Source: Candidatus Nomurabacteria bacterium (GTDB taxonomy: Bacteria > Patescibacteriota > Minisyncoccia > Phycocordibacterales > UBA918). From it: DNA of 59,852 nt. Of the stretch, positions 2,316 through 59,265 are shown piece by piece. Position 1 is the first letter of the stretch. The number at the start of each line of letters is the position of its first letter. The translations under genes were made by a program, and so were the position numbers. The notes beneath the pieces were generated by a model, which did no database searches, was not told where the DNA came from, and was given only the letters and a program-made list of their open reading frames with translations. The stretch spans positions 1-59,852 of the forward strand of contig JACKGI010000004.1 in assembly GCA_020632015.1 (NCBI GenBank), given 5' to 3'.

Positions 2316-2330
2316 ATATACATTTTTTGT

Positions 2331-3365: not shown

Positions 3366-3397
3366 CCCTCACTTAACTAATTAACAACTTAAATTAA

Positions 3398-4183
3398 ATG
3401 TCATACATCAAAGTAACTACATACGGCGATTATGTCGAAATAAATGAATACGAACATGATCTTATACGAAACCATGACGGACGCGCAGGCCGGCGGTCGT
3501 CAGCTATTAGCAATGATAATTTGGGAACTAGCAGAGAGGATTCACTTCAGACCGGGGACAGTGAAGAAAAAGTGGGGCGCCGATCCGATAACGCGTGGCG
3601 CGCTAGCATGGCTTTCCGAAGGCTTGTTTCAGCTAACCTCGGGAGAGGATCTGCACCACCTCTACTGGCTACACTTACCTACGGGAGCAATTTCACCGAC
3701 CTTAGTGCGGCGTATAAACACTACTCAGCTTTTGCGCAATCTCTCAGACGCAAGTTCGGGCATGACTTTAAGTACCTATGCGTCCCAGAATTTCAAGAAC
3801 GTGGCGCCGTACATTTCCACGCTTTCCTCTGGGGGTTACCCGAAGAACTTTTTCTTCTGGAGAGGGAAAATCGTACCGTGGCACAAATCTGGAGCCATGG
3901 TTTTGTCGATCTCAAAAGAACAGATGGAGCAGGGGCGTTGGCTGGGTACCTAGCTAAATATCTAACCAAAGCCTATGAAGACCCGCGTCTCAAGAATCAA
4001 AAAGCATACACCGCTTCTCGCAATATCATTCGTCCTGAAGTGTTTACGGGGAACTTCAGTGCCGATCGCATTCTCTTTGAATTAGGGGTTGATTCTGAGC
4101 CTGAAGTCTCACGCGAATACAACACAAAGTGGTTTGGTCGTGCCACCTATCGCAAATACAAGATTAACCATGATGAGCCTTAA
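3398..4183 (+). CDS. rolling-circle replication initiator (HUH endonuclease, two-tyrosine type)
   Basis: Motif 1 LLATLTY, motif 2 VHFHAFLW (HUH), motif 3 YLAKYLTK (Y-x3-Y, compare phiX gpA YVAKYVNK). Confidence 0.8.
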   Translation: MSYIKVTTYGDYVEINEYEHDLIRNHDGRAGRRSSAISNDNLGTSREDSLQTGDSEEKVGRRSDNAWRASMAFRRLVSANLGRGSAPPLLATLTYGSNFTDLSAAYKHYSAFAQSLRRKFGHDFKYLCVPEFQERGAVHFHAFLWGLPEELFLLERENRTVAQIWSHGFVDLKRTDGAGALAGYLAKYLTKAYEDPRLKNQKAYTASRNIIRPEVFTGNFSADRILFELGVDSEPEVSREYNTKWFGRATYRKYKINHDEP

Positions 4184-4349
4184 GCATCTTAGAGAAATAG
4201 AACCTAAACTCGCTAATGCTTCTGATGAAGAAGTGGCTCTTATTCGTGAAAAAATCTATGAAGTGGCGCACCTTGCATACGATTCTTATAAAGAAGACCG
4301 TGATTCCAAATTCGCCGTGGGGTCAGCGGAAGTGGACGATGAAAAATAG
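4170..4349 (+). CDS. small hypothetical protein (59 aa) between Rep and recombinase
   Basis: ATGATG start overlaps the Rep stop, and the ORF ends 2 nt before the recombinase start. Tight operon-like packing; no motif recognised. Confidence 0.4.
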   Translation: MMSLKHLREIEPKLANASDEEVALIREKIYEVAHLAYDSYKEDRDSKFAVGSAEVDDEK

Positions 4350-4351
4350 CT

Positions 4352-5887: not shown

Positions 5888-5921
5888 AAACCTGGCGTCC
5901 TGACCATTAGACGATAGGACC
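5847..5921 (-). tRNA. tRNA-Glu (anticodon UUC), CCA encoded
   Basis: Manual cloverleaf: GGTCCTA/TAGGATC acceptor, anticodon stem CCAGG/CCTGG with loop TTTTCAT, T-arm CGGGG-TTCGATT-CCCCG, ACCA end. Confidence 0.93.
5849..5863. repeat. 15-bp direct repeat GTGATCCTACGGGGA (att core, copy 2, inside tRNA-Glu)
   Basis: Identical to 794..808. Confidence 0.8.
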
Positions 5922-21666: not shown

Positions 21667-22973
21667 AACTCCGACCCTTTGAATTAGCCTTAGTTATAGT
21701 TTTTATCGGTCTAGCTCTTTTGGCATTAGTGATGCTGGCAACCGCTGATCCAAAAAAATCCAAATCTGATGACGGACAGACAGTTGTCGGCTATGTAACT
21801 ATCTGGGGTACGTTACCAGCTGAATCTATAAACAGCATTCTGTCTGAAATATCTAAGGAAAACGAAGCCTACAAAGATGTCATCTACAAATACTACAATC
21901 CAGACGACTTCGACAACGTACTAGTTAATGCGCTAGCAGACGGAACTGGTCCCGATTTGGTGCTGATTTCCCATGAGAAATTAGTAGAAACCCGTAAACG
22001 AATACAACCCGTTTCTTATGAATCTTTCCCGATTAGAAATATCCGAGATTCATATTTAGACGGAGCACAAATCTTTGCTCTTGATGACGGCCTGTATGGT
22101 TATCCTATCGCTGTGGATCCAATAATGATGTACTGGAACAGAGATATCTTTGCGAACAAGGATTTGTTGTCTGCTCCTGCTACTTGGGAAGATTTAGTAA
22201 ACTCAGTATTTCCAAAGTTAATTGAGCGGGATTCTGACAGAACGATTAGACAAAGTGTGGTGGCGATGGGTGAGTATGACAACGTCCGTAATGCTTTTGG
22301 AATACTATCGACTCTTTTAATTCAGGGGGGTTCAGAGAGGGTGACGATCGATAAGGTCGGGCGATACCAAGTAAAGCTACAGATGTCAGAAACAGGAAAG
22401 GGTGACCCCTTGCGTGCCGCAGCAGATTTCTACACTCGCTTCAGTAAACCTAGCAACGCCCTATATTCATGGAATCGTTCATTTAAGGACGACAGACTAG
22501 AATTCGTATCAGAGAATTTGGCTATTTACTTTGGTTACGGAAGTGAAGGTAGACAGTTAGAAAAAATAAATCCAAACTTCAATTTCGATATAGCAGAAGT
22601 TCCGCAGGGGGCAGAAGCAACAGTGAGAAGAACCTACGGTAAGTTCTACGCCCTGTCGCTCCTTAAGACATCAGATAACAAGGTCGGCGCCAGCGCAGCT
22701 ATGACCAAGTTGGCTGGCGCCACAGTGGCTACCGAAATCGCCATACGAAATAACCTAGTTCCAGCTTATCGTAACGCTGTTTTACAAGGTAGTAACGATA
22801 CTTTTGGTCGACTAAATTATAAATCAGCGGCAGTGGCGCTAGGGTGGCTTAATCCTGATTTGTCCGCTTCTAACCAAATATTCTCAACAATGACACAAGA
22901 CATTAATGAAAACAGACGAGACTTAGACAGCGCTGTCTTAGATGCTTCAAAGAGATTGGGTAATGAATATTAA
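21663..22973 (+). CDS. extracellular solute-binding protein (ABC family 1-like), membrane anchored
   Basis: N-terminal TM anchor and SBP-like blocks GTGPDLVLISHEKL and YGYPIAVDPIMMYWNRDIF. Confidence 0.7.
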   Translation: MKLRPFELALVIVFIGLALLALVMLATADPKKSKSDDGQTVVGYVTIWGTLPAESINSILSEISKENEAYKDVIYKYYNPDDFDNVLVNALADGTGPDLVLISHEKLVETRKRIQPVSYESFPIRNIRDSYLDGAQIFALDDGLYGYPIAVDPIMMYWNRDIFANKDLLSAPATWEDLVNSVFPKLIERDSDRTIRQSVVAMGEYDNVRNAFGILSTLLIQGGSERVTIDKVGRYQVKLQMSETGKGDPLRAAADFYTRFSKPSNALYSWNRSFKDDRLEFVSENLAIYFGYGSEGRQLEKINPNFNFDIAEVPQGAEATVRRTYGKFYALSLLKTSDNKVGASAAMTKLAGATVATEIAIRNNLVPAYRNAVLQGSNDTFGRLNYKSAAVALGWLNPDLSASNQIFSTMTQDINENRRDLDSAVLDASKRLGNEY

Positions 22974-22977
22974 TGTT

Positions 22978-23610
22978 ATGAAAAAAATACTACTTTATAC
23001 TTTTGGTTTCCTAACTATCGCTCTGGCACAAGCATATCCATCGACGGCGCTAGCTGAACCATGTGGTACTGGTTCAACTGATCCCCAGTGTGAGTGCACT
23101 TCTCCAAGGGTACCCATGCAATCCACTGTGACAGGGATTTATACTTGCCAACTTCCTGGTATAGCAGAGACTAATAATTGTACAGGATCACAATCAATAA
23201 ATAGTTGTTCGTGTGGTGCAGGGTACACTAAAGCGTGTGACGCTTTAGGTAACAACTGCACTTGTAATGGTAATCCTTCTAACTCCCAAAGTCCATTTGA
23301 GGCTGGAGAAGGAGCGGGACTAAAGGAAAATCCGGGGATAACTTTTAAGCTTACTAGTCCGATTAACGTCACTACTTTCGAAGGCTTACTGTCATCTCTC
23401 CTAAACATTTTCTTGGTTATTGCGACACCAATAATTGTGTTGTTTATAATCTACGCTGGTTTCCTATATGTAACAGCTCGAGGCAATGCAGAACAAACCA
23501 AGCAGGCTACAAAAGCCCTGACTTACGCTATCATCGGCGGAGTCATTTTGCTTGGTTCAGTGGCGATTGCCGAAATTGTTAAAAACGTAGTTGAGGCTTT
23601 TAGAGCCTAA
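22978..23610 (+). CDS. VirB2/TrbC-like pilin-family membrane protein, paralog 1 (Cys-rich N-terminal extension)
   Basis: Signal peptide MKKILLYTFGFLTIALAQA, a Cys-rich region, then the family core IATPIIVLFIIYAGFLYVTARGNAEQTKQATKALTYAIIGGVILLGSVAI. Confidence 0.7.
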   Translation: MKKILLYTFGFLTIALAQAYPSTALAEPCGTGSTDPQCECTSPRVPMQSTVTGIYTCQLPGIAETNNCTGSQSINSCSCGAGYTKACDALGNNCTCNGNPSNSQSPFEAGEGAGLKENPGITFKLTSPINVTTFEGLLSSLLNIFLVIATPIIVLFIIYAGFLYVTARGNAEQTKQATKALTYAIIGGVILLGSVAIAEIVKNVVEAFRA

Positions 23611-23616
23611 ATCTCT

Positions 23617-23880
23617 ATGGAAAATTTTGATAACCCACTAACTTTTCCAAGCATTTCGGACCTCTTAGTTGCGGTCCTAAATGTAATGATTGTCATTGCT
23701 ACACCGATTGTGGTTTTCTTCATTATTTATGCTGGGTTTATGTATGTCACAGCCAAAGGTAAGGCAGAGCAGATTCAACAAGCTTCACGCGCTCTTACAT
23801 ATGGAGTTATCGGTGGAGTTATCATTATTGGTTCAATCGCGATTACTCAGATTGTTCAGAACGTAGTAAATTCCTTTTAA
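23617..23880 (+). CDS. VirB2/TrbC-like pilin-family membrane protein, paralog 2
   Basis: Core IATPIVVFFIIYAGFMYVTAKGKAEQIQQASRALTYGVIGGVIIIGSIAI, near-identical in pattern to paralog 1. Confidence 0.7.
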   Translation: MENFDNPLTFPSISDLLVAVLNVMIVIATPIVVFFIIYAGFMYVTAKGKAEQIQQASRALTYGVIGGVIIIGSIAITQIVQNVVNSF

Positions 23881-23890
23881 GTTTTAAATT

Positions 23891-24148
23891 ATGCCATCAA
23901 CACCAACCACCTACGAAGAACTAGTTCTCTTCTTTGTTGATTTAATAAATGTAATCATCCCGACTATTTTTGGTTGTTTGTTTGTTTATTTTGTTTGGAA
24001 GATGATTGACGCATGGGTCCTTCATGCAGGAGACGAGAAGAGTCGAGAAGAAGGGAAGAGGTACGCCGTGACAGCAGTGATTGTGTTTGTGGTTATGGTA
24101 AGCGCATGGGGAATTGTGGCCATGATTAAGCAGTCAATCTTTGGCTAA
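23891..24148 (+). CDS. VirB2/TrbC-like pilin-family membrane protein, paralog 3 (divergent)
   Basis: Same helix - polar loop (AGDEKSREEGKR) - helix architecture, 85 aa. Confidence 0.55.
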   Translation: MPSTPTTYEELVLFFVDLINVIIPTIFGCLFVYFVWKMIDAWVLHAGDEKSREEGKRYAVTAVIVFVVMVSAWGIVAMIKQSIFG

Positions 24149-24223
24149 TTATAAGCTCGCACCCTTTACATTTAGAATTATTTAGGTACAGTTTATATCA
24201 ACAACGTAATATATATTAATAAT

Positions 24224-24601
24224 ATGAAAAAGATTTTATCATCTCTACTTCTGATTCCAGCAGTATTTCTACCACTTGTCTCATCAGCCCAAATTGCAAA
24301 TTCTTCTGATGCTGGCCCGTTTCAAGCATTGCTAGTCAATATCGTTACTTTTATTAATGATATTTTAATTCCGTTTATTATCGCAATCGGATTCCTATTC
24401 TTTGTTTGGGGGATGTTCCTTTACTTTATTTTAGGTGGAGCGGATGATGAAAAGAAGCTAAAAGGAAGGAGTTTAATGATTCACGCTACAATTGGTTTTG
24501 TAGTAATCATCATTTTCTTCGGAGTTGTAAACTTACTTACTTCTAGTACAGGGCTAGAAGGAGAGGCGCTCAGGAATATTCCGGCAGTAGAGATTCCGTA
24601 G
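24224..24601 (+). CDS. VirB2/TrbC-like pilin-family membrane protein, paralog 4
   Basis: Signal peptide, then LIPFIIAIGFLFFVWGMFLYFILGGADDEKKLKGRSLMIHATIGFVVIIIFFGVVN. Confidence 0.65.
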   Translation: MKKILSSLLLIPAVFLPLVSSAQIANSSDAGPFQALLVNIVTFINDILIPFIIAIGFLFFVWGMFLYFILGGADDEKKLKGRSLMIHATIGFVVIIIFFGVVNLLTSSTGLEGEALRNIPAVEIP

Positions 24602-24693
24602 TAAACAGTGAATAACTAATTTGTCTACAGTAATCTATGGCCTATAATTATAGGTAAACGTTATAACGTTATAAATTTAAATAGAAAATACGT

Positions 24694-25089
24694 ATGAAAA
24701 GAATTGGGTACATGATTGGAGGCTCAAGTTCAATCGCTCTTGCAGCACCATTGTTGGCTTTTGCACAGATTGCAGATCAAGCAAACGCAGGTGGTTTTGA
24801 GCAACTTTTGAGAAACATCCTTGAGTTTACAAATGGAGTTTTGATTCCATTTATTATCGGTATCGGTTTCCTTGTTTTTGTATGGGGAATGTTCCGATAC
24901 TTCATCGCTGGTGGAGCAAATGACGAAGCAAAGGCAAGCGGAAAGAGTTTAATGATCTACGCAACTCTAGGGTTCGTATTGATTATTGTGTTCTGGGGAA
25001 TCATCAACCTTATCAGCGGCAGTCTATTTTCAGACAGCGACACTCTAGATCAAAACCTAGTACCAAAGGTAGACAACCTGCTCCCATAG
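24694..25089 (+). CDS. VirB2/TrbC-like pilin-family membrane protein, paralog 5
   Basis: LIPFIIGIGFLVFVWGMFRYFIAGGANDEAKASGKSLMIYATLGFVLIIVFWGIIN, close to paralog 4. Confidence 0.65.
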   Translation: MKRIGYMIGGSSSIALAAPLLAFAQIADQANAGGFEQLLRNILEFTNGVLIPFIIGIGFLVFVWGMFRYFIAGGANDEAKASGKSLMIYATLGFVLIIVFWGIINLISGSLFSDSDTLDQNLVPKVDNLLP

Positions 25090-25113
25090 TATTTTCAGAT
25101 ACTCATTGAAACA

Positions 25114-25136
25114 AAAACCACCTTCGGGTGGTTTTT
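25114..25136 (+). terminator. intrinsic terminator after paralog 5
   Basis: AAAAACCACC-TTCG-GGTGGTTTTT. Confidence 0.6.
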
Positions 25137-25184
25137 GTTTGGATAAATAATTAAGTGAAGTTTTATTTGTGATAAGATTTCAGT

Positions 25185-25610
25185 ATGGATCCACAACAGC
25201 AAGCAGCTAAAGAAGCAGCAGATTTCGTCACCAAGTTTAATGACATAATTCTTTTTCCCACCATCACACTACTTAGTGCAGTAGCTTTTTTAGTTTTTGT
25301 TTGGGGTTGTGTTGAGTACTTTATTGGTGCTGCTAATGAATCTAAGAGACAAGAGGGTGTTAAGCATATCACCTATGGGATTATCGGCTTGGTGGTAATG
25401 GTTTCAGCCTACGCTATTCTCGCCATCGCTACAGCAACCTTTGCGCTAGATGACGAACTAGAATGCGCCAACAACCCAACTGCTGCTCAGTGTACAAATG
25501 TGTTTAAGATACCTGATGGCGGAGGTGGCCCAGTTGTTCCAAATAGCGGCGGCGGAGGAGGCCCTGTTGTGCCAGGCGGAGGCGGCGGAGGTGGCCCAGT
25601 TGTTCCGTAA
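25185..25610 (+). CDS. VirB2/TrbC-like pilin-family membrane protein, paralog 6, with Gly/Pro repeat tail
   Basis: Core LLSAVAFLVFVWGCVEYFIGAANESKRQEGVKHITYGIIGLVVMVSAYAI. C-terminus carries three GGGGPVVP repeats. Confidence 0.65.
   Translation: MDPQQQAAKEAADFVTKFNDIILFPTITLLSAVAFLVFVWGCVEYFIGAANESKRQEGVKHITYGIIGLVVMVSAYAILAIATATFALDDELECANNPTAAQCTNVFKIPDGGGGPVVPNSGGGGGPVVPGGGGGGGPVVP
25518..25607 (+). repeat. three imperfect tandem repeats encoding (G)nPVVP
   Basis: GGCGGAGGTGGCCCAGTTGTTCC recurs three times with variable Gly-codon runs. Confidence 0.7.
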
Positions 25611-27649: not shown

Positions 27650-28687
27650 ATGACTCTAGCTGAGAGAACAGACCCGACTAGTCGCGCGGAAAGACGCCGG
27701 CAAGTAGCAATGGATAAAAGGCCTCGTACGACTGTGTCTTTTTATCGATATGTGCAGATTGCAGACCCAGAAGCCTTTCGGCGCAGGCTACTAGACAAAT
27801 GGTCTGAGTTGGACTGTTTAGGTAGGATTTACGTGGCTCATGAGGGTATTAATGCACAAATGAATGTACCTGACATGTACTGGGATCAGTTTGATGCTTG
27901 GGTACAAAACCAGCCAGAACTAGCTGGTGTGCCATACAAAAAGGCAGTAGAGGAAGCTGATTTTTCCTCTTTCTACAAATTAACGATTAAGATTCGTCCA
28001 AAGATAGTTGCGGATGGTCTAGACGATAAGTCTTTTGATGTAACCAACACAGGAGCTTATTTGACAGCAGAGGAGATGAATCAGTACGTAGAAGACCCTG
28101 ATGCGGTTATTGTCGATATGAGAAATAACTACGAATCTGAAGTCGGTCACTTTGAAAAGGCCATTACTCCAAACGTAGTAACATTTCGAGATGAGCTCAA
28201 GAAAACTCCAGAAATGCTCGGAGAGTACAAAGATAAGAAAGTTGCTCTGTATTGTACTGGCGGGATTCGTTGCGAGAAAGCAAGTGCGTGGCTAAAACAT
28301 AATGGGTTTAAGGACGTTAGACATCTTAAGGGCGGAATCATTGATTACGCTCATCAGGTACAACAAAAAGGCTTGGAGAATAAATTCAAAGGCAAGAACT
28401 TTGTTTTTGATGAAAGATTGGGCGAAAGGATTGGCGATGAGATTATTTCTAATTGCCATCTTTGTAAGAAAGTAAAATGTGATACTCATCACCATTGTAA
28501 AAATCAGATTTGTCACACATTGTTTATTGGCTGTGACGATTGTATAAAGAAAAAGCAGGGTTATTGTTCATTGGTGTGTAGGCAAGTAGACAAGCTTCCG
28601 ACTCACACAAAGAAGACTCTAGCTAAGTACTATAATTTATATATTAGGAAGAGAAAGCCGTTTGAGAAGACGAGATTAGTTGCATAA
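27650..28687 (+). CDS. trhO: rhodanese-domain tRNA uridine(34) hydroxylase (UPF0176/YceA family)
   Basis: TTVSFYRYV N-terminus, rhodanese active-site loop CTGGIRCEKA, Cys-rich C-terminus. Confidence 0.85.
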   Translation: MTLAERTDPTSRAERRRQVAMDKRPRTTVSFYRYVQIADPEAFRRRLLDKWSELDCLGRIYVAHEGINAQMNVPDMYWDQFDAWVQNQPELAGVPYKKAVEEADFSSFYKLTIKIRPKIVADGLDDKSFDVTNTGAYLTAEEMNQYVEDPDAVIVDMRNNYESEVGHFEKAITPNVVTFRDELKKTPEMLGEYKDKKVALYCTGGIRCEKASAWLKHNGFKDVRHLKGGIIDYAHQVQQKGLENKFKGKNFVFDERLGERIGDEIISNCHLCKKVKCDTHHHCKNQICHTLFIGCDDCIKKKQGYCSLVCRQVDKLPTHTKKTLAKYYNLYIRKRKPFEKTRLVA

Positions 28688-28688
28688 C

Positions 28689-28712
28689 AAAAACCGGCTA
28701 TGCCGGTTTTTT
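28689..28712. terminator. bidirectional terminator after trhO
   Basis: AAAAACCGGC-TAT-GCCGGTTTTTT. Confidence 0.7.
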
Positions 28713-28719
28713 GTTATTT

Positions 28720-28850
28720 GTGCGCAGGAGAGGACTTGAACTCTACGAGTTCAGTACAGGTTGTCGTTATTTTGTTCACAAGCTCCAAAATAACTGGCAA
28801 CCTTTTCAAACCCTCACACAAAGTCTTCCAGACTTTGCTTCCTGAGCACA
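28720..28850 (-). repeat. tRNA-3'-end-linked hairpin module, copy 1 (downstream of tRNA-Leu-UAG)
   Basis: 28720..28741 is a perfect 22-nt copy of the tRNA 3' end (28879..28900). 28805..28815 is an inverted T-loop/T-stem copy. Long hairpin at 28759..28802. The interior is homologous to the module at 38595..38706. Confidence 0.6.
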
Positions 28851-28879
28851 CAAAAACCCACCAAAGTGGGTTTTCTTAG

Positions 28880-28961
28880 TGCGCAGGAGAGGACTTGAAC
28901 CTCCACGGATTGCTCCACTAGTGCCTAAAACTAGCGCGTATACCAATTTCGCCACCTGCGC
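28880..28961 (-). tRNA. tRNA-Leu (anticodon UAG)
   Basis: GCGCAGG acceptor, anticodon stem CTAGT/ACTAG with loop TTTAGGC, long variable arm, T-arm GGAGG-TTCAAGT-CCTCT. No CCA encoded. Confidence 0.93.
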
Positions 28962-29052
28962 ATATTTAATTGTGACCGTGAGTATAGCAGGAACTATTAC
29001 TCAAGGCTAGGAATCATACTAAGAGACGTAGTATTTCAGTATGATTCCATTG

Positions 29053-37386: not shown

Positions 37387-38061
37387 ATGAGCGACAAAAT
37401 CCAAACATATTCAACTATTATTCCAGAAAATATTTTTTCAGAAGTAAACGAGGATAATAAGTTTCCAGTACTCGATGAAACAGGCTTCATTGTTACCCAG
37501 AAGGAATCCGAAGACATTGATGTGCCGCAAGGACCCTGGCTTCTGCTGGTGGATGATGCTTGGCGCCGCACAAAATGGCCGATGAATGAAATGATCAGGA
37601 ACTACATTTCATTCATTTTAAGTCGTTACTCATTGCAGGTCGACTTATATGAAAAATTAGTGGCCTTCAATTACATTCAATATTTTGTACTTGGCAAAAA
37701 AATTGGCTATGACATGATGCAGGAAATTGCTGATATTTGTTTCCAGTATGTTTCCTTTGTGCCTAGGCGTAGCCTGAGTCGTAGAGAGTTTCGTTCTTTG
37801 AAATACAGTACAGAACTGGGGCAGTCTTTATATGACCAGTTAGTGGAAAACCACGAAGGAGAAAATAATTTTTTCAGCAGTGCCCATAGGGAAATGTCAG
37901 AAAACTATGACATGGCCGTCTCGATTATGCGTAAATTGGACTTACCCATGCAGGATATACAAATAAAAGTTGGTCCATTAAATATTCCTGATGATTTAGA
38001 CGGCGATAATCTAGAGCAGTTGTTTAAAATTTACACTGAGCCTTGTTCTGGAAGTTCTTAA
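37387..38061 (+). CDS. hypothetical protein
   Basis: The ATG at 37387 follows a GAGGA RBS; the ORF is open from TTG 37366. No motif recognised. Confidence 0.5.
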   Translation: MSDKIQTYSTIIPENIFSEVNEDNKFPVLDETGFIVTQKESEDIDVPQGPWLLLVDDAWRRTKWPMNEMIRNYISFILSRYSLQVDLYEKLVAFNYIQYFVLGKKIGYDMMQEIADICFQYVSFVPRRSLSRREFRSLKYSTELGQSLYDQLVENHEGENNFFSSAHREMSENYDMAVSIMRKLDLPMQDIQIKVGPLNIPDDLDGDNLEQLFKIYTEPCSGSS

Positions 38062-38249
38062 CCAAAACAATACCCGCATTCTGCGGGTATTTTTTAGTGC
38101 GCTGGAATGACTGAGTTTAGAACCAGTATCATAGTGTCAGAATACTGTTTCTTGCCAAGTTTTATAAAGATGGAGGAAGTTTTTGCACAAAAAGAAAACA
38201 GCCCCAGCATGGAAACTAGAGCGTTTCCTTTACTAGGACTGATTAGGTA

Positions 38250-38510
38250 TTACTGCTTTACAAAAACATGGAAGATCAGAGTCCCGCCATGCATTTGGTA
38301 TGTATTTAGATAGACACCGGCTTCTCTGATAGGGTGTCCTGTGCCGTATGTTTGTATGACACACGGCTTCGTCTCGGCACTTGGGTCAACGAGTGCCCAT
38401 AGATACGGTGTTTCCCCTTGTGCCTGAACCGACAGCAGTTGAGCACCATCAGGTATTTGCACGGTCTGCTCGTTAGTTACTTCAAGTGGGAACTTCCAAA
38501 TGGTTTTCAT
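38250..38510 (-). CDS. hypothetical small protein (86 aa), GC-richer than the flanks
   Basis: MKTIWKFPLEVTNEQTVQIPDGAQLL...GTGHP...HVF pattern. I recall similar small proteins in phage or mobile contexts, but this is unverified. Confidence 0.55.
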   Translation of the reverse strand: MKTIWKFPLEVTNEQTVQIPDGAQLLSVQAQGETPYLWALVDPSAETKPCVIQTYGTGHPIREAGVYLNTYQMHGGTLIFHVFVKQ

Positions 38511-38594
38511 GTGTACCTCCTCAGGTAACGTAAGTGAAAGGGCGAAAATAAACTGAGTACAACTATACTCTATAAATGAATGTTGTCAAGGTTT

Positions 38595-38706
38595 GTGCGC
38601 CGGGCAGGAATTTTGGTCATTACATGACCGGTACAGGTTGTCAGTATTTTTGTTCCTCTGTCACAAAATACTAGGCAACCTCTTCAAATCCAGTGACCAC
38701 TGTCAA
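38595..38706 (-). repeat. tRNA-3'-end-linked hairpin module, copy 2 (downstream of tRNA-Tyr)
   Basis: 38595..38609 is a 15-nt copy of the tRNA-Tyr 3' end (38746..38760). 38683..38691 is an inverted T-loop copy (TTCAAATCC). Long hairpin at 38636..38680, homologous to copy 1. Confidence 0.6.
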
Positions 38707-38746
38707 AACAAAAAACCAGACACAAGGTCTGGAATTTGTTTCGAAG

Positions 38747-38829
38747 TGCGCCGGGCAGGATTTGAACCTGCGTAGGATAAATCCGTCAGATTTACAGTCT
38801 GATGCAATTGACCACTCTGCCACCGACGC
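38747..38829 (-). tRNA. tRNA-Tyr (anticodon GUA)
   Basis: GCGTCGG acceptor, anticodon stem TCAGA/TCTGA with loop CTGTAAA, long variable arm, T-arm GCAGG-TTCAAAT-CCTGC. Confidence 0.92.
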
Positions 38830-38999
38830 GTGTATATTTAATTGTATTTTGGAGTGTTGTAATATTTACCTCGTAGGGAATATACGTGGTCAATTACATT
38901 GTCCTCCTATCGCCTCGTAAACAAAGGCGATTCTGTCGCAAGCGACAGACCAGAGAAAATATAAAGCAGTTTATATTTTCTCCACTCTGCCACCGACGC
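38830..38999 (-). repeat. tRNA-5'-end-linked module upstream of tRNA-Tyr
   Basis: 38982..38999 is an 18-nt copy of tRNA-Tyr positions 1-18 (38812..38829). 38886..38899 is an inverted D-loop copy. Three hairpins at 38909-38931, 38933-38948 and 38953-38982. Confidence 0.5.
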
Positions 39000-39167
39000 A
39001 TATGTTCTTGTGTCTACTCAAAGAGATTCAATGAGTGGGAACAAAATAACACATTCGTATCATTTTTCAAAGCTCCATTGAGCATAAGTATCCAGAATTA
39101 CGCAAAAATAGTGTTTTTATTCTAAATACTTCTGCTAAAATTAGACTATTATAAAAACTATTACTTT

Positions 39168-40217
39168 ATGAAATATCTCCATCTTTTTGTTTTTTTATTT
39201 TTAGGCCTTTTAGTTTACATTTCTCCGGTAGAGGTTTTTGCTCAAGACCCAACAGGCTTGGTGCCTTGTGACGGCACAACAGAAAATCCATGTAATTCAT
39301 GCCAGTTAGTGGTGTTGGGAGAAAATATTTTGCAGTGGCTTATTGGTGTCATGCTGGTTATTTTTGCAATAATGGTTGCAATCTCTGGCTTTAACTTAGT
39401 TACTTCTGGAGGTAATCCACAAGCAAAAACAGAAGCAAAGAAGAAGCTAACCAATTCATTCGTTGCGATTGTTATTGTCTTGGCTGCTTGGTTGATTGTG
39501 GATACTCTGATGCGTTCGCTTCTGCTTGGCGGAGAAGGGCAGATTAATGGTCGTCCTTGGTCTACTTTAGAGTGTATTAATGCTACTGAGACAACTATGC
39601 CAAACAAAAATGAATTAAGTCCCACACTACAACAAGTTGAGGATCTGAAAGCGATGGGATGTCAGTTTAAGAATGGCAGAGAGGGGTGGTATTGTCCAAA
39701 TACTTCTTGCCGATATAGGGAGACTGAGGGTTGGTACAATTGTGCAGAAGGAGAAGTTCCTCCAGCTCCTCCTGAGCCAATAGCGGCTGCTGGTTTAGAA
39801 AATGCTTGTGGCGGTGGACCGTGTGTTCCTTTGGCTACAGTAGGCGTGCCATGTAAAGATCCAAACAGTTGTGCATTGGCACCTTCAACTCAGGAGAAGG
39901 TCGCCGCTTTCCATGCAGCTGCTGGTGTATCTGGAGCCAGAGTGACCGAAGCTATGCCTCCAACTCGAACACACAGTAACCCTTGTCATACAAATGGAAC
40001 TTGTATCGATTATGGTAAGGCTGGTGGTATGACTAATCAGGAGATAAAAGATGTTATTCAAGCTGCCGTAAACGCTGGTCTGTCTCCTAAGTACGAAGTC
40101 GGTACACAAGCTGAAGTTGATGTTTTGTTAGAAGCTGGTATTCCAGCTCAATATATCGAAAAGCCTTTAGGTAGCCATATAACGGCTCCACATTTTTCTA
40201 TTTATGATAATGGTTAA
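39168..40217 (+). CDS. VirB2/TrbC-like pilin-family N-terminal domain fused to a Cys-rich C-terminal domain (possible LAS/M15-like metallopeptidase)
   Basis: Signal peptide, then PCDGTTENPCNSCQLVVL...VMLVIFAIMVAISGFNLVTSGGNPQAKTEAKKKLTNSFVAIVIVLAAWLIV. The C-terminal HTNGTCID fits H-x2-G-x3-D (H-x6-D) of VanX/M15-type zinc sites, a weak match. Confidence 0.65.
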   Translation: MKYLHLFVFLFLGLLVYISPVEVFAQDPTGLVPCDGTTENPCNSCQLVVLGENILQWLIGVMLVIFAIMVAISGFNLVTSGGNPQAKTEAKKKLTNSFVAIVIVLAAWLIVDTLMRSLLLGGEGQINGRPWSTLECINATETTMPNKNELSPTLQQVEDLKAMGCQFKNGREGWYCPNTSCRYRETEGWYNCAEGEVPPAPPEPIAAAGLENACGGGPCVPLATVGVPCKDPNSCALAPSTQEKVAAFHAAAGVSGARVTEAMPPTRTHSNPCHTNGTCIDYGKAGGMTNQEIKDVIQAAVNAGLSPKYEVGTQAEVDVLLEAGIPAQYIEKPLGSHITAPHFSIYDNG

Positions 40218-40259
40218 ATAAACAAAGACTGGCGGTATGCCAGTCTTTGTTTATTTATG

Positions 40260-40330
40260 CGGGTCCACGAGGACTCGAACCTCGGCCGACGGTTTTGGAG
40301 ACCGTTGTTCTACCACTAAACTATAGACCC
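40260..40330 (-). tRNA. tRNA-Trp (anticodon CCA)
   Basis: GGGTCTA acceptor, anticodon stem ACGGT/ACCGT with loop CTCCAAA, T-arm CGAGG-TTCGAGT-CCTCG. Confidence 0.92.
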
Positions 40331-40375
40331 GTATGTTTGCTGTGGCAGTTATAGTATGGGAAAGACCGAGCTAGG

Positions 40376-41281
40376 TCAACTGTTTTCATTGTGTAGAAAT
40401 TCTTCAATTCTTTTGAAGATAGCTTCGGTGTTTGTGGGTTCAAACCATTCTATCTCCTCGTCTCTTTTTAGCCATGTCATCTGACGCTTTGCATACTGAC
40501 GGATTTTAATCTCAAGTTTCTTCAGCATCTCATCGTAAGTGAGTTCTTGTTGAAGATACATCGCTATATATCGGTACTCAAGTCCGAGATCATGCATGCG
40601 TTCATAGCTTAGGCCATTTTTGTGTAGTTCGCATACCTCATCTACCATGCCGGCTTTAAATCTCTCCAGTAGTCGCTTGTGGATGTTTTGATGAAGTCTT
40701 AGTTTGGTTATGTTTACTCCGATTATCAACCAGTCATATGCAGATTCGCGACTGGTAAGTAAAGGTACATGACCTAGTGAGTCGATTATTTCTAGGGCTC
40801 TTACTAAGCGTGGACGATTATTAGGGTCAATTGTTTCTGCTCTCTTAGGGTCGGCTTCCTTAAGTTTTTCAAATAGTTCAGGAGTAGAAAATCCCATTAG
40901 ACTTAATCGAAAGTCTTGATCTGGCGGAACAGAAGCGACCTGTTGCCTACCTCTTAGCATGTCCAAGTAGAAAAAGGTTCCGCCAGCAATGATTGGTAGT
41001 CTTCCACGACACTGAATATCAAGTAAGGCTGCTGATGCGTCTAGTTCGAATTCAGCAGCATTGTAACTTGTGGTCGGATCGGCAATGTCTAGTAAGTGGT
41101 GTGGAACTCCATCCATTTCATCGCTGGTTACTTTTCCTGTCCCTAAGTCCAAACCCTTGTAGACTTGTCTAGAGTCAGCAGAAATAACTTCACCATCAAA
41201 TTTTTTGGCGATTTCTATGGACAGGGAGGTCTTGCCTGACGAGGTGGGACCAACCACTGCTATTGCCTTTGGTTTGGTCAT
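40376..41281 (-). CDS. miaA: tRNA dimethylallyltransferase
   Basis: P-loop VVGPTSSGKTS, ISADSRQVYKGLDLGT, 301 aa. Confidence 0.92.
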   Translation of the reverse strand: MTKPKAIAVVGPTSSGKTSLSIEIAKKFDGEVISADSRQVYKGLDLGTGKVTSDEMDGVPHHLLDIADPTTSYNAAEFELDASAALLDIQCRGRLPIIAGGTFFYLDMLRGRQQVASVPPDQDFRLSLMGFSTPELFEKLKEADPKRAETIDPNNRPRLVRALEIIDSLGHVPLLTSRESAYDWLIIGVNITKLRLHQNIHKRLLERFKAGMVDEVCELHKNGLSYERMHDLGLEYRYIAMYLQQELTYDEMLKKLEIKIRQYAKRQMTWLKRDEEIEWFEPTNTEAIFKRIEEFLHNENS

Positions 41282-41351
41282 TGTTTTAAGTCTACCAGAA
41301 GTCAGAAGAGTCTGCAGTAAAATTCTAATATGTTACTATGTCGCCAAAATT

Positions 41352-41978
41352 ATGAGTATAAATATAAAAGCAGATATGGGGCACGAATGTTGTGAAGGAG
41401 CTATATTAGCACCGCTAACAATTGGGGATACGGTACCGGAAGAAGTTAGTTTCCCAATTTATCAAGAGGGTGAATTTTCAGAGTTAGATTTTAAAACACT
41501 AAGAGGTAAATGGGTGGTACTACTTTTCTATCCCAAGGATTTCACATTTGTTTGCCCGACTGAATTGGGTGAAATGGCTACTTTGTATGAGCAGTTCACA
41601 AATGAAGGGGCTGAAGTAATATCGGTTTCGACTGACACAGTCGAGGTGCACAAAGCTTGGCACGACACTTCTCCGACTATCAAAACGATTAAGTACCCAA
41701 TGGCCGCAGACCCGACTCATTATTTATCTGAACTCTTCGGGGTATTGGTTGAAGATGAAGGGGTTGCTAATAGAGGTACGTTTATTATTTCTCCAGAAGG
41801 GGTCATCAAGACACTGGAGATAAGTTGTGATGCTGTTGGACGAAGCGGAAAAGAAACTCTGCGAAAGTTTAAAGCAGCAAAATTTGTTGGAGAAAATCCA
41901 GCAAACGTTTGTCCTGCGAGTTGGGATGAGGGTGGAGATGTGCTTACTCCGGGTGCTGATTTGGTTGGGAAGATATAG
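41352..41978 (+). CDS. ahpC: typical 2-Cys peroxiredoxin (AhpC/Tsa family)
   Basis: FYPKDFTFVCPTEL peroxidatic Cys and a resolving Cys in NVCPASW. The ATG at 41352 avoids overlap with miaA. Confidence 0.9.
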   Translation: MSINIKADMGHECCEGAILAPLTIGDTVPEEVSFPIYQEGEFSELDFKTLRGKWVVLLFYPKDFTFVCPTELGEMATLYEQFTNEGAEVISVSTDTVEVHKAWHDTSPTIKTIKYPMAADPTHYLSELFGVLVEDEGVANRGTFIISPEGVIKTLEISCDAVGRSGKETLRKFKAAKFVGENPANVCPASWDEGGDVLTPGADLVGKI

Positions 41979-42016
41979 GTGATGTAAGAAGCCGGCCCTG
42001 AAGGGGCCGGCTTTTT

Positions 42017-42120
42017 GGTGCCTCGAGAGGGAGTCGAAACTTACAGTTTCAGTACCCGTTTTGGATGGATTACTTCGTTCCTTATAATCCATCTCAAAAC
42101 AGCTTCGACTCCCTCAACCA
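42017..42120 (-). repeat. tRNA-3'-end-linked hairpin module, copy 3 (downstream of tRNA-Leu-CAA)
   Basis: 42017..42038 is a perfect 22-nt copy of the tRNA 3' end (42158..42179). 42104..42115 is a perfect 12-nt inverted copy of the T-loop/T-stem. Long hairpin at 42058..42100. Confidence 0.6.
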
Positions 42121-42159
42121 AAACAAAAACCAGACGCAAGGTCTGATTTCTTATTTCGG

Positions 42160-42241
42160 TGCCTCGAGAGGGAGTCGAACCCTCAAGCCTTGCGGCATAC
42201 GATTTTGAGTCGTACGTGTATACCAATTCCACCATCGAGGC
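42160..42241 (-). tRNA. tRNA-Leu (anticodon CAA)
   Basis: GCCTCGA acceptor, anticodon stem TACGA/TCGTA with loop CTCAAAA, long variable arm, T-arm GAGGG-TTCGACT-CCCTC. Confidence 0.92.
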
Positions 42242-42389
42242 ATTTAAGTGGTGAAAAAGAGTGTATCAGAAAAAAGCGAATAAGAAAACGATAATAGTCA
42301 GGTTTGTTTATCTGTGTATAACTCTAGTGTGTTAGAATTCAGGGATAGAGCTGACGTAGAGCTCGGAGGTAATATTACGGTTTTTAACT

Positions 42390-43607
42390 ATGGCATTTCA
42401 GGGGGATTCAATATATTGGGTGGAGGTAGAGAAAGTGGTTCCAAACCCCTTTCAACCTCGACGAGAGTTTGATCAAAATAAACTGCAAGAACTAGCAGAT
42501 TCTATTCGTATGTACGGGGTGATGCAGCCTCTAACAGTTACTCGGGCAGAAGTACAACGTGAAGATGGTACTTTTTATACAGAGTATGAATTAATCGCTG
42601 GAGAGAGGCGTCTACGAGCTAGTAAGCTAGCTGGTATTGCTCAGGTCCCGGTGATTATTCGCGAAGGACATCAGAGTGAACAAGAAAAGTTAGAATTAGC
42701 GATTATTGAGAATCTCCAAAGAGAAGATTTGAATGCTGTAGATAGAGCAATTGCTTTCAAACAATTGGCTGAATCTTTTGGTTTGTCTCATACTCAAGTT
42801 GCTCAGAAAGTTGGACGAAGTAGAGAATATGTATCTAACTCAATTCGTTTACTTGGACTACCTGACCACATGCTCGAATCACTGAAACATAGTGACATGA
42901 TGGAAGGGCATGCCAGAACTCTTTTAATGCTTACTGATAGACCAGAAGAGCAAGAAGTGGTCTACAAAGAAATCCTCCTGAAGAAACTTTCAGTTAGAGA
43001 GGTGGAAAGGATTGTTAGGAAGATTGCGACAGATAAGGTTCGCAAAAAGAACCCAGGAGAATTTGATGCTCATTTGATTGAGTTAGAGAAGCAGTTCACA
43101 GAAAGTCTTGGAACCCGTGTGCAGATTCAAAAAACAGATTTCGGTGGCAAGCTAACAATCGACTATTTCTCAGATGATGATCTTGAGGTTATATTACGTC
43201 GCATCAAGGAAGAGGCCGAAGCACCAAATCAAGACCAACAAGAGACAGTCGAGAAGCTTTCTGAACATACTCCACTCGCAGTTAATATCGCTCCAGCTTC
43301 AGTTGCTTCAGAGGATAATATTATTCCAACTCCACCAACTCCAACACATTCGGTACCTGAAGAGGATGGGCACGAAATCAACCATGGCTTCGATGATTAT
43401 GACGAGATTTATTCTGTACTCGATAACGAATCACCAGCTAATCCTGAAACTCACTCCAACGAATATGTCGAGCCTCAAAGTAATATTCCACAAACAGAAC
43501 AGTCAAGTTACTCTCCTACTCAAGTAATAGACAAAAATAGGGAGGAGGAAAAACAAAAAGACGAAGACGACAGTAGTCTTTATTCAATCAACAGTTTTAC
43601 AGTTTAG
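42390..43607 (+). CDS. parB: chromosome partitioning protein ParB with long low-complexity C-terminal extension
   Basis: ParB box IAGERRLRA, an HTH region and a dimerisation domain, then about 120 aa of acidic/Pro-rich tail. Confidence 0.88.
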   Translation: MAFQGDSIYWVEVEKVVPNPFQPRREFDQNKLQELADSIRMYGVMQPLTVTRAEVQREDGTFYTEYELIAGERRLRASKLAGIAQVPVIIREGHQSEQEKLELAIIENLQREDLNAVDRAIAFKQLAESFGLSHTQVAQKVGRSREYVSNSIRLLGLPDHMLESLKHSDMMEGHARTLLMLTDRPEEQEVVYKEILLKKLSVREVERIVRKIATDKVRKKNPGEFDAHLIELEKQFTESLGTRVQIQKTDFGGKLTIDYFSDDDLEVILRRIKEEAEAPNQDQQETVEKLSEHTPLAVNIAPASVASEDNIIPTPPTPTHSVPEEDGHEINHGFDDYDEIYSVLDNESPANPETHSNEYVEPQSNIPQTEQSSYSPTQVIDKNREEEKQKDEDDSSLYSINSFTV

Positions 43608-59062: not shown

Positions 59063-59117
59063 CATAATTTAGTTTGACCCCAATGCGCATGCATTGGGGT
59101 CTTACTAAATTACCTGA

Positions 59118-59265
59118 CTACAGGGACTCGAACCGAGACGGCGCGAAGCCCGACGAAATGAAATGGAGTCGGAGCCGTCGAGTGGGGGTCGAGGGAGTGA
59201 GATATTTTGAGTTCAAAGAACGAAAAAAATATCCACGAGAGTGACCGATTCCCTGTCCGGCAGCA
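59118..59265 (+). repeat. tRNA-3'-end-linked hairpin module, copy 4 (downstream of tRNA-Gln)
   Basis: 59120..59134 is a perfect 15-nt inverted copy of the tRNA T-arm (59041..59055). Hairpin at 59137..59179. 59250..59265 is a 16-nt direct copy of the tRNA 3' end (59049..59064). Confidence 0.55.

Follow-up and report, generated by a model that had tools for sequence, protein, structure and literature searches.

A family of structured elements in partial duplicates of stable-RNA genes of Patescibacteria, with a copy behind tRNA-Leu(CAA) of a Candidatus Nomurabacteria bacterium

Genomic islands are detected through displaced tRNA 3' fragments, and the attL/attR scars of P4-type elements resemble the module considered here in that the repeated tRNA 3' end begins in the T-loop, the insert completes the tRNA and several insertions can pile up at one site. 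The module differs from such scars by a unit of only 140-200 bp that holds neither integrase nor cargo and encloses a covarying, strand-specific three-way junction, while its family also includes mirror forms, which duplicate the 5' part of the gene, and insertions into 5S rRNA. MITEs, REP/REPIN sequences (RAYT) and IS200/IS605-derived PATEs are likewise small, non-coding and multi-copy, with hairpins, subfamilies and degenerate copies, and REPINs are long-lived and vertically inherited. Unlike these, the module has no family-wide, fixed terminal inverted repeats and no fixed-length target-site duplication, for which a MITE/REPIN type was rejected; no HUH or other transposase was found, the module always lies in sense orientation in a stable-RNA gene fragment, and two of its helices (P1 and P3, below) are partly host-gene sequence. 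The rRNA genes of CPR bacteria carry group I and II introns and RNase III intervening sequences, in a report without mention of tRNA (PMC11270868), and archaea provide non-canonical tRNA introns, split tRNAs and a tRNA gene disruption model (PMC3293823). These systems share with the module either the lineage or the entry of mobile sequences into stable-RNA loops, as well as sites outside the anticodon loop and partial gene copies beside intact ones. In contrast, the core of the module spans about 100 nt and fits no intron or ribozyme model, and its interrupted copies are pseudo-copies beside intact genes, so that splicing is not needed. The T-arm and acceptor half is also reused within larger RNAs in the tRNA-like domain of tmRNA, the bacterial Y RNA YrlA, viral 3' tRNA-like structures and tRNA-derived SINEs, whereas in the module the T-loop is replaced by a junction, the mimic is a copy identical to the neighbouring tRNA of any identity, and neither a tmRNA (ARAGORN) nor a curated tRNA-like Rfam family is matched. 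Finally, the folded attP of CTX phage resembles the module in its inverted repeat mimicking a double-stranded target, in the inverted copy, spacer and target copy that stay behind at one end, and in its tandem arrays, but the module has no phage genome and its target is the tRNA T-arm, not dif.

The locus lies within a window of 59,852 nucleotides, the whole stretch of DNA that was analysed, which is bacterial chromosome (ClpB, MiaA, ParB, RelA/SpoT, TopA, GyrA, FtsZ). A phage or plasmid origin was rejected, as megablast of positions 38000-43000 against phage records gave nothing. The following parts were delimited behind tRNA-Leu(CAA), in plus-strand numbering, the element reading on the minus strand:

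42158..42241, minus strand: intact tRNA-Leu(CAA), placed at 42158-42241 by ARAGORN and at 42160-42241 by the Rfam tRNA model (58.2 bits)
42158-42179, minus strand: last 22 nt of this tRNA, T54 to C75, the upstream copy of the direct repeat
42116..42157, minus strand: left arm of the module, a 12-nt trailer and then an intrinsic terminator (stem-loop 42125-42151, followed by a T-run)
42104..42115, minus strand: 5' strand of P1, GAGGGAGUCGAA, exactly complementary to UUCGACUCCCUC, which is the T-loop plus the 3' strand of the T-stem
42056..42102, minus strand: long hairpin P2, CUGUUUUG-A-GAUGGAUUA / UAAUCCAUC-CAAAACGG, with a 12-nt apical loop at 42073-42084
42051..42055, minus strand: junction J2/3, GUACU, holding the GUAC box that is near-invariant in the family alignments
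42036..42050, minus strand: hairpin P3, GAAAC-UGUAA-GUUUC, with the invariant GUA in its loop
42017..42038, minus strand: downstream copy of the tRNA 3' end, T54 to C75, 22/22 identical
41986..42016, minus strand: hairpin GCCGGCCC-cuuca-GGGCCGGC past the downstream copy, probably the original terminator of tRNA-Leu(CAA), shared with the convergent peroxiredoxin gene (ORF end at 41978)

All sequence elements reported in a preliminary description of this DNA were recovered. Both tRNA callers agree on the tRNA; the direct repeat GGTGCCTCGAGAGGGAGTCGAA (42158-42179 and 42017-42038) is perfect over 22 nt with a spacing of 141 nt, the 12-nt inverted repeat (42104-42115 / 42168-42179) is likewise perfect, and the interrupted hairpin is present with arms at 42059-42072 and 42085-42098, its fold extending to 42056-42102. 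The arm at 42101-42115 also pairs with the downstream copy (42027-42041; 15 nt, 93%). In the predicted fold, the 3' strand of P1 is 42027-42038, the 3' strand of P3 ends with T54-T55-C56 of the duplicated tRNA end, and the acceptor 3' strand (42016-42026, ending in ACCA) is single-stranded. The sense strand of the module folds with -44.2 kcal/mol (z = -6.2 versus shuffles), and the 141 bp between the repeats contain no ORF, the neighbours being MiaA, peroxiredoxin and ParB. The left-arm terminator, described earlier as nearly identical to that of tRNA-Tyr, indeed shares 88% with it over 26 nt, and its portion CAGACCTTGCGTCTGGTTTTT (42125-42145) recurs in near-identical form at just one other place in the window, 38711-38731 after tRNA-Tyr, with 0 expected by chance; this terminator common to two different tRNAs was seen in the source genome only. 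Because a strong terminator precedes the module and no promoter-like site was found ahead of it, abundant expression of the Leu-CAA copy is doubtful.

A covariance model, R1, was built from 51 relatives, the Leu-CAA copy being left out of the seed; about half of the 119 genome matches to the search pattern were chance matches in coding DNA of GC-rich bacteria and were discarded. R1 matched the Leu-CAA copy over its full length (42016-42117, minus strand, model positions 1-103) with 58.7 bits and E = 2.4e-18, and it found about 100 copies (96 further copies; 104 matches) in 59 Patescibacteria loci. The flanks of the Leu-CAA copy agree as well, with 22/22 nt in the tRNA repeat and 12/12 in P1. 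The module is a member of a widespread family of structured elements of about 100 bases in Patescibacteria, and this family is previously undescribed, with no match in Rfam or in the literature searched, full texts included. Rfam 15, run over the whole window at gathering threshold, returned only the nine tRNAs; at E up to 10, nothing plausible overlapped the module in 41950-42260 or 28650-28980, and 15 related loci matched only tRNA, 5S and 23S families. A group I or group II intron or a known self-cleaving ribozyme was rejected on the same ground, together with the small size of the core.

The fold shared by the family is a three-way junction made of P1, the long hairpin P2 and the short hairpin P3 with its GUA loop, which replaces the simple extended T-arm hairpin first proposed. 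P1 forms between the T-loop and 3' strand of the T-stem in the duplicated tRNA end and a complement located upstream, which covaries with whichever tRNA is duplicated; the inverted T-arm copy is a real pairing partner, as had been suspected. The stretch GGGTACTGAAACTGTAAG, which had been taken for a linker, is the conserved junction GUAC plus the conserved hairpin P3. Double-sided changes were found in 25/25 pairs, and paired cells reached 92% versus 71% in shuffles and 40-50% in slid controls. This is illustrated by the base of P2, which covaries between subfamilies (GGUUG/CAACC in the main one, CCUUG/CAAGG, CUUUUG/CAAAAG, and CUGUUUUG/CAAAACGG in the Leu-CAA copy). Conservation also extends to the junctions GAARA and GUAC and to other unpaired positions, namely the GUA loop and a GCC/GA internal loop, and some P2 apical loops are GNRA-like. 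Since G:U pairs far outnumber A:C pairs (16 vs 1 in P2, 38 vs 12 in P1), it is the tRNA-sense strand that folds, a bias which alone cannot tell RNA from folded single-stranded DNA. A tertiary contact between a GGG loop in the hairpin H1, which precedes some cores, and a CC bulge in P2 was rejected, the presence of the two being uncorrelated.

Linkage to stable-RNA genes is pronounced. Among 99 copies, 58 (59%) lie at most 130 nt downstream of a same-strand tRNA, versus 1.5% by chance, and 26 isoacceptors are represented; in 55 of the 99, 12 nt or more of the tRNA 3' end are repeated, at a spacing whose median is 154 nt. The repeat is 15 to >60 nt long and always starts at T54, and the inverted repeat changes with each tRNA. 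Longer partial tRNA copies join the core at nt 53/54 (loci L102, L016) or ahead of the T-stem (L113), second copies beginning at about nt 22, 38, 47 or 49 (L102, L016, L113 and the canonical type). Mirror loci have their intact tRNA 18-35 nt downstream (L025, L037, L067, L091, L093, L052), and it is the 5' part of the tRNA that is duplicated in a 3'-truncated copy. The core also interrupts a collinear, 5'-truncated pseudo-copy of 5S rRNA (starting at nt 25) beside an intact 5S gene, and one locus contains a cluster of such interrupted pseudo-copies. Some repeats run through the terminator (L111, L103), and the core is always in sense orientation. An intact, uninterrupted tRNA adjoins the interrupted fragment in every tRNA-linked copy whose flanks were read; a sole functional gene was thus never seen interrupted, and a spliced tRNA intron was rejected. 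The element accompanies 58/109 tRNA genes in loci chosen for having a copy, and 3/9 in the unselected window, where one related module is added.

Within this window, four of the nine tRNAs are followed, 141-201 nt downstream, by a 15-22-nt copy of their own 3' end, which excludes chance. The three further modules are:

28718..28837, minus strand: sister copy behind tRNA-Leu(TAG), R1 95.8 bits; hairpin H1 (28819-28837) precedes P1-P2-P3, after which 22 nt of the tRNA 3' end are repeated (28720-28741)
38595..38731, minus strand: sister copy behind tRNA-Tyr, R1 87.6 bits; the twin terminator (38711-38731) precedes P1-P2-P3, after which the tRNA 3' end is repeated with 15/18 nt (38595-38612)
59064..59264, plus strand: related "family B" module behind tRNA-Gln, R1 only 11.2 bits

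R1 thus places the Leu-TAG, Tyr and Leu-CAA copies in one family, in line with the earlier view of the latter as the third copy of a recurrent module. All 11 pairs of P1 are kept in the Leu(TAG) copy through two G:U wobbles. Family B has the same topology (inverted T-arm copy 59120-59134, 15-nt 3'-end copy 59250-59264), and its inner helices, GAGUGAGAUAU...AUAUCCACGAGAGUGACC, differ from those of the R1 family. A decayed module was sought in the 196-nt gap after tRNA-Leu(TAA), and none is there. The tRNA-Trp site is empty in the window and occupied in the syntenic locus L083; the empty site reads gca|taaa, as does the downstream copy in L083. Besides these modules, the window contains, right next to tRNA-Glu, a genuine integrated element that has a large serine recombinase.

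The preliminary description had also pointed out that the tRNA gene continues as ACCG and the copy as ACCA, which is correct for this locus. However, the CCA end does not hold as a trait of the module, as an encoded NCCA is not conserved across the family: of about 52 copies on each side, 6 downstream and 2 upstream ones are followed by CCA, as are 6/51 module-less tRNA genes. The complete CCA is a peculiarity of the Leu-CAA copy, and the idea of a substrate or decoy for the CCA-adding enzyme loses its main sequence argument.

We tentatively assign the module to a non-autonomous, intron-like insertion element that is present in many copies and resides in partial duplicates of stable-RNA genes, and give this reading a probability of roughly 45%. 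Its core comprises some 90-100 nt, made up of P2 and P3 with the GUAC junction, and either P1 closes it or H1 stands ahead of it. In sense orientation, this core lies within a partial second copy of the gene, in tRNAs at the boundary between T-stem and T-loop (nt 53/54). The 5' strands of P1 and P3 pair with the bases that open the gene fragment downstream, in the manner of exon-binding sequences. The disrupted copy lies beside an intact one, so that the essential tRNA is unharmed. In the Leu-CAA copy, the intact tRNA is the upstream one and would end in sequence supplied by the element, which includes a separate terminator; the original 3' end would have been displaced to the far side of the core together with the native terminator. 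Such loci may originate and spread by homologous recombination between an element-interrupted gene copy, either circular or acquired through transformation, and the resident gene: a crossover in the 3' homology would give the type seen in the window, and one in the 5' homology the mirror type. If so, the conserved fold would reflect the needs of the element's RNA, or of its folded single strand, in propagation.

Turnover of the kind expected of an element is visible in the shared terminator, in degenerate copies (many score 20-50 bits), in locus variation and in tandem arrays behind one tRNA, in which as many as three or four copies from different subfamilies follow one another (L013, L019, L044, L101, L113). 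For instance, the orthologous Leu-CAA locus carries one module in the window, one with a decayed tail in L083 and three of different subfamilies in L113, and presence at a given tRNA varies between related genomes. Together, the mirror arrangements, the tandem arrays and the core in a 5S pseudo-copy argue for an insertion element rather than a dedicated tRNA decoy. Against an insertion element stands, first, that no integrase, transposase or reverse transcriptase is linked to any of the approximately 100 copies (60-kb window and 8-kb loci). A recurrent helper protein was also sought by clustering 406 ORFs from 59 loci, which gave only housekeeping and syntenic families, the genes next to the copies being housekeeping genes. 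Second, the Tyr and Leu-CAA copies keep their fold with different stem sequences in distant orthologues (window versus L083, about 65% MiaA identity), which locus-level purifying selection for a host function predicts more simply. Third, copies from different genomes group according to the type of their tRNA (Gln, Arg-TCT and Tyr groups), which fits vertical descent. The downstream tRNA copy follows the tRNA sequence of its own genome, which calls for either recurrent recombination or functional constraint. Close relatives were searched for an empty-versus-filled comparison: identical MiaA occurred only on contigs of about 1.7 kb, a metagenome scan with peroxiredoxin reached at best 58% identity with no synteny and no close relative, and no empty/filled site pair from near-identical strains was found.

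Selection for a host function would be explained if the modules encoded a family of small RNAs on a tRNA- or 5S-derived scaffold, with the three-way junction as the active part; we regard this as the main rival reading, possible yet doubtful. The duplicated T-arm and acceptor 3' strand, in some copies joined by the 5' strand, would confer tRNA-like stability and processing by RNase P, RNase Z or the CCA-adding enzyme; expression would come from read-through of the tRNA promoter, and the role would lie in tRNA metabolism or in protein binding. The conserved unpaired nucleotides, GNRA-like loops and strong covariation speak for such an RNA, as do the persistence of the fold across deep divergence and that of P1 in copies whose acceptor tail has decayed (L098, L022, L083). 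The invariable sense orientation is also in its favour, and mirror-type and terminator-less copies must be co-transcribed with the tRNA. In about 10-15% of copies (L031, L020, L064, L083), H1 is also preceded by a complement of the acceptor 3' strand, so that the outline resembles a cloverleaf. However, this complement is missing in most copies (mean 5.5 pairs vs 5.0 in a shuffled control), and a conserved full mini-tRNA was rejected accordingly. The tail is not enriched for CCA, and all three R1 copies in the window lie behind a strong terminator with no promoter-like site. Arrays of different subfamilies behind one tRNA, the many degenerate copies, the cluster of interrupted 5S pseudo-copies and the variable presence between related genomes also count against a host RNA.

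A bolder reading, which we consider unlikely, makes the core a new class of small element that is itself mobile at the RNA level, as an intron- or ribozyme-like three-way junction. With the 5' strands of P1 and P3 as guides, it would enter exposed loops of the most stable RNAs of the cell (the tRNA T-loop, 5S rRNA) and become fixed in DNA as 5'-truncated chimeras next to the parent gene, comparable in bacteria to SINEs linked to tRNAs or to introns that were retro-copied. Such an element may occupy about 1% of streamlined Patescibacteria genomes.

Simple decay of att sites that belonged to a known integrase family, the alternative named in the preliminary description, now seems quite improbable. 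The modules would then be attL/attR remnants, reduced to attP arms, of integrase-driven elements that had used the block from T-loop to tRNA 3' end and lost their cargo, or else miniature integrase-dependent elements mobilised in trans. The repeat geometry is textbook for tRNA-targeting integrases (P4-type sites): a direct repeat of the tRNA 3' block, from T-loop to tRNA end, flanks the insertion, element-type sequence and a terminator come after the upstream copy, which completes the tRNA, and the flank after the downstream copy looks native, as the comparison of the empty tRNA-Trp site with L083 illustrates; the integrated element at tRNA-Glu also belongs on this side. This reading is nevertheless already weakened, as none of the about 100 copies has an integrase inside or beside it and no recombinase recurs in their neighbourhood, the spacing is tight and the size uniform instead of showing random deletion end points, and covarying hairpins with a G:U bias are unexpected for double-stranded arm-type sites. 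Mirror 5' duplications and the core in a 5S pseudo-copy misfit a T-loop-specific integrase. A phage attP was rejected too: the 11 exact-pattern matches in a viral contig collection are no modules, the family model and a tRNA scan finding nothing there.

Least credible is a SINE-like, retro-copied chimera, in which the core would enter stable RNAs by a reversible cleavage-ligation or splicing-type reaction and the chimeric RNA would be reverse-transcribed from its 3' end and recombined beside the parent gene: 3'-complete second copies with variable 5' truncation, hosts that are the most abundant stable RNAs, constant sense orientation and the pairing of P1 and P3 with the downstream "exon" suit it, but no reverse transcriptase lies in the window or near copies, the copied 3' ends show no enrichment of the CCA that mature tRNAs carry, copies of the mirror type are truncated at the 3' side, none of the known ribozyme models fits, and some repeats pass through the terminator, so that the source was a primary transcript or DNA, not mature tRNA.

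Patescibacteria genomes are among the smallest and most streamlined in bacteria. If it is selfish, it would represent a new route for a parasite into essential genes, by duplicating the part that it disrupts, and would add a new collection of conserved structures in RNA or single-strand DNA. If it is instead a host RNA, a large non-coding RNA family connected with the biology of tRNA would have been overlooked in a major bacterial lineage. In both cases, the finding bears on the annotation of tRNAs and of genomic islands, since displaced tRNA 3' fragments serve to call islands. It accounts for "extra" tRNA fragments in Patescibacteria genomes and ties to the long-standing question of why the stable-RNA genes of CPR bacteria are so rich in insertions.

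Four of the nine tRNA genes in the window (Leu-TAG, Tyr, Leu-CAA and Gln) are followed, 141-201 nt downstream, by a 15-22 nt copy of their own 3' end, hence the pattern is not confined to tRNA-Leu(CAA). All the repeats noted behind the latter in the preliminary description are exact at their coordinates, and this module is organized as follows.

Anatomy of the Leu-CAA module, in minus-strand order
42241-42158, minus: tRNA-Leu(CAA) gene
directly 3' of the tRNA, minus: trailer of 12 nt
42151-42116, minus: intrinsic terminator CAGACC-uugcgu-CUGG, then a T-run
42115-42104, minus: GAGGGAGUCGAA, exact complement of the tRNA T-loop and T-stem 3' strand
42102-42056, minus: hairpin of 47 nt
between the 47-nt and the small hairpin, minus: GUACU
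42050-42036, minus: small hairpin GAAAC-UGUAA-GUUUC
42038-42017, minus: perfect 22-nt copy of tRNA T54 to C75, overlapping the small hairpin, then ACCA
42016-41986, minus: second terminator hairpin, common to the convergent peroxiredoxin gene

The sense strand of the module folds at -44.2 kcal/mol (z = -6.2). Within the window, only the Tyr and Leu-CAA modules have this left-arm terminator; despite it, their P2 helices belong to different subfamilies.

The Leu-TAG and Tyr modules have in common the motif GGTTGCC-hairpin-GACAACCTGTAC. An exact-pattern search with this motif through 185,579 species genomes found the full architecture at about 55 loci, all in Patescibacteria records (Kaiserbacteria, Paceibacteria, Nomurabacteria, Minisyncoccia and assemblies labelled "Saccharibacteria"). 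The remaining matches were rejected as chance occurrences in unrelated coding DNA. The fold supported by aligning 51 copies has three helices that meet at a junction.

Elements of the family fold
P1: upstream strand, pairing with the duplicated T-arm from G57 to C62/65
J1/2: GAARA
P2: long hairpin with an internal loop
J2/3: (U)GUAC(U)
P3: five or six base pairs, invariant GUA loop, 3' strand ending in T54-T55-C56

In this seed alignment, 93.5% of the cells were paired; shuffles gave 79% and slid controls 33-50%. Double changes were carried by 171 cells, for 45 expected. The covariance model derived from it gave 104 matches in 59 loci. It recovered at full length (58.7 bits, E = 2.4e-18) the Leu-CAA module, which was outside the seed and lacks the search motif. 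The earlier idea of a recurrent module was right. In the larger, model-found set, compensatory changes affected 25 of 25 pairs, including the base of P2, where whole-helix covariation separates the subfamilies GGUUG/CAACC, CCUUG/CAAGG and CUUUUG/CAAAAG; the Leu-CAA module has CUGUUUUG/CAAAACGG there. G:U pairs far exceeded A:C mismatches (16 versus 1 in P2, 38 versus 12 in P1), and the window Leu-TAG copy keeps P1 intact (11 of 11 pairs) by means of two wobbles. It is therefore the tRNA-sense strand that takes up the structure, in RNA or possibly in single-stranded DNA that folds. The module has no match in Rfam, even at permissive thresholds.

A same-strand tRNA lies at most 130 nt upstream of 58 of the 99 copies (1.5% expected), linked copies concern 26 isoacceptors, and 55 of the 99 repeat at least 12 nt of the 3' end of their tRNA. 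The repeat always starts at G53/T54, with a median spacing of 154 nt, and extends past the tRNA terminator in a few copies (loci L111 and L103). As CCA is not conserved among the copies, the proposed role as a decoy or CCA-enzyme substrate is not supported as a family property. Among the 109 tRNA genes of the window and the 59 loci, only about 7% encode CCA, and most read C-A-N after the discriminator base.

The core, i.e., P2, the GUAC junction and P3, recurs in other arrangements. L102, L016 and L113 have a longer tRNA copy, truncated at its 5' end, which leads directly into H1 (the hairpin preceding P2), then P2-P3, then T54 onward; the position of the core is like that of an insertion at nt 53/54 or, in L113, before the T-stem. 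The mirrored arrangement (L025, L037, L067, L091, L093, L052) reads tRNA nt 1 to about 53, core, a local hairpin (T-loop sequence with its complement), a spacer of 18-35 nt and the intact tRNA. Tandem arrays of two to four modules after one tRNA are common (L013, L019, L044, L101, L113). In L112, an intact 5S rRNA precedes a collinear, 5'-truncated 5S pseudo-copy (matching 5S nt 25-50, 54-88 and 90-108 at 94-100%) with two insertions, one being the core. From these arrangements, the core is an insertion-like unit that always lies in sense orientation in an incomplete duplicate of a stable-RNA gene, next to the intact one.

Several of these loci have further features. In L112, interrupted 5S rRNA pseudo-copies cluster downstream of 23S-5S (640-2300); they lie on both strands and include at least five core units, and a small HTH-like ORF (about 2176-2267) is overlapped at its 3' end by one of these units. 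The L112 record carries the label Acidimicrobiales and L057 the label Patiriisocius; in each case a Patescibacteria contig was probably mis-binned. One tRNA-like 3' end (GTTCAAGTCCCATCGCTCGCGCAA) terminates each of the four tandem modules of L013 (2046-2612), two of which have the same model score; their parent tRNA may be unusual or interrupted, since ARAGORN made no call for it. Terminator-less copies (L055, L064, L083, L115, L120) have a conserved leader, GAACGAAGUGAG, between the intact tRNA, which it closely follows, and the acceptor-5'-like strand with H1. A second family, B (GAGUGAGAUAU...AUAUCCACGAGAGUGACCGAUUCC), of the same topology, occurs behind tRNA-Gln in the window (59064-59264) and behind tRNA-Ala in two other genomes (L019, L118), in L118 immediately after an H1-P2-GUAC-P3 unit. 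Inserts of family V (50-85 nt, ...GUA..CCACU(U)CUCUCGCUCACUC...) occupy the D-loop of tRNA-Gln pseudo-copies and nt 50/54 of a 5S pseudo-copy (L091, 261-340; L102, about 50 nt after tRNA-Gln; L112, 1200-1269), and V and core occur in the same pseudo-copies.

We tentatively consider the module (probability about 0.45) as a non-autonomous, intron-like insertion element, which survives because the gene copy it interrupts adjoins an intact one. At the DNA level, homologous recombination would take place between an element-interrupted copy and the resident gene. If the crossover falls in the 3' homology, the outcome would be the window type (intact tRNA followed by the element's left arm, the core and the displaced 3' end); if it falls in the 5' homology, the mirror type. 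This single scheme would cover both arrangements, as well as the variable repeat length, the tandem accretion and the tracking by each downstream copy of its own tRNA. Spread by transformation, with conserved tRNAs as homology arms, is conceivable since DprA is encoded in the window.

Decayed integrase scars at tRNA genes would account for the repeat geometry, but leave unexplained the uniform size, the covarying strand-specific fold and the mirror and 5S forms; moreover, no integrase turned up around the roughly 100 copies or among viral contigs. A dedicated functional small RNA could also explain why the junction nucleotides are conserved and the fold is so deeply retained. This reading fits poorly with tandem copies from different subfamilies, the many degenerate copies, the interrupted 5S pseudo-copies clustered in L112, the non-conserved acceptor stem and CCA, and the presence of strong terminators, and of no promoter, in front of all three window copies. 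Direct entry of the core into stable RNAs followed by retro-copying would fit 3'-complete, 5'-truncated copies, but is unlikely, with neither reverse transcriptase nor CCA signature.

Elsewhere in the window, tRNA-Glu(TTC) (5847-5921, minus strand) encodes CCA, has no module and adjoins an integrated mobile element (877-5921).

Genes of the element adjoining tRNA-Glu(TTC)
877-1455: His-Me/EndoVII nuclease
1452-2315: DNA methylase
3398-4183: rolling-circle Rep, ORF2/G2P-RepSA type
4352-5887: large serine recombinase, its end overlapping the tRNA-Glu(TTC) 3' end

tRNA-Tyr is also duplicated on its 5' side: an 18-nt copy of nt 1-18 (38982-38999), 170 nt before the gene start, is followed by hairpins and an inverted D-arm complement (38886-38899), within 38830-38999. 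The pattern resembles insertion of a different element, of mirror or D-loop type. Several small proteins with the type IV secretion pilin-like domain PF18895 are encoded at 22942-25610 and 39168-40217, one between tRNA-Trp and tRNA-Tyr, and a DUF7352 protein (38250-38510) comes after the Tyr module.

The window is bacterial chromosome (about 42% G+C, housekeeping genes); in the genome collection, its nearest relatives by synteny are L083 and L113, metagenome-assembled genomes of Paceibacterota and Nomurabacteria. L083 has the same gene order (Leu-CAA, peroxiredoxin, MiaA, Trp, Tyr), and its MiaA is, by eye, about 65% identical to that of the window. Behind Leu-CAA and Tyr it has modules of the window's local type, and an unusual replacement of P3/T-loop, GGUCAUGUAAUGACCAAAAUU, is common to the Tyr copies; the fold is kept with different stem sequences, left arms and tails. 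tRNA-Trp has a 99.8-bit module in L083 and only a terminator in the window. L113, whose ParB N-terminus is nearly identical to the window's by eye, has three different modules in tandem after Leu-CAA. Copies from different genomes tend to cluster according to the type of their tRNA (Gln, Arg-TCT and Tyr groups). Overall, long retention goes together with gain, loss and decay of copies and with mosaic exchange among them.

No description of the element was found in Rfam 15 or in the full-text literature searched, and a systematic study of CPR rRNA insertions does not mention tRNA (PMC11270868). The architecture is a three-way junction with one helix borrowed from the duplicated T-arm of whichever tRNA adjoins, and is also present in 5S copies. 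Because it is unlike integrase att sites, MITE/REPIN elements, known introns and ribozymes, or tRNA-like RNAs, we rate the module as a new kind of element.
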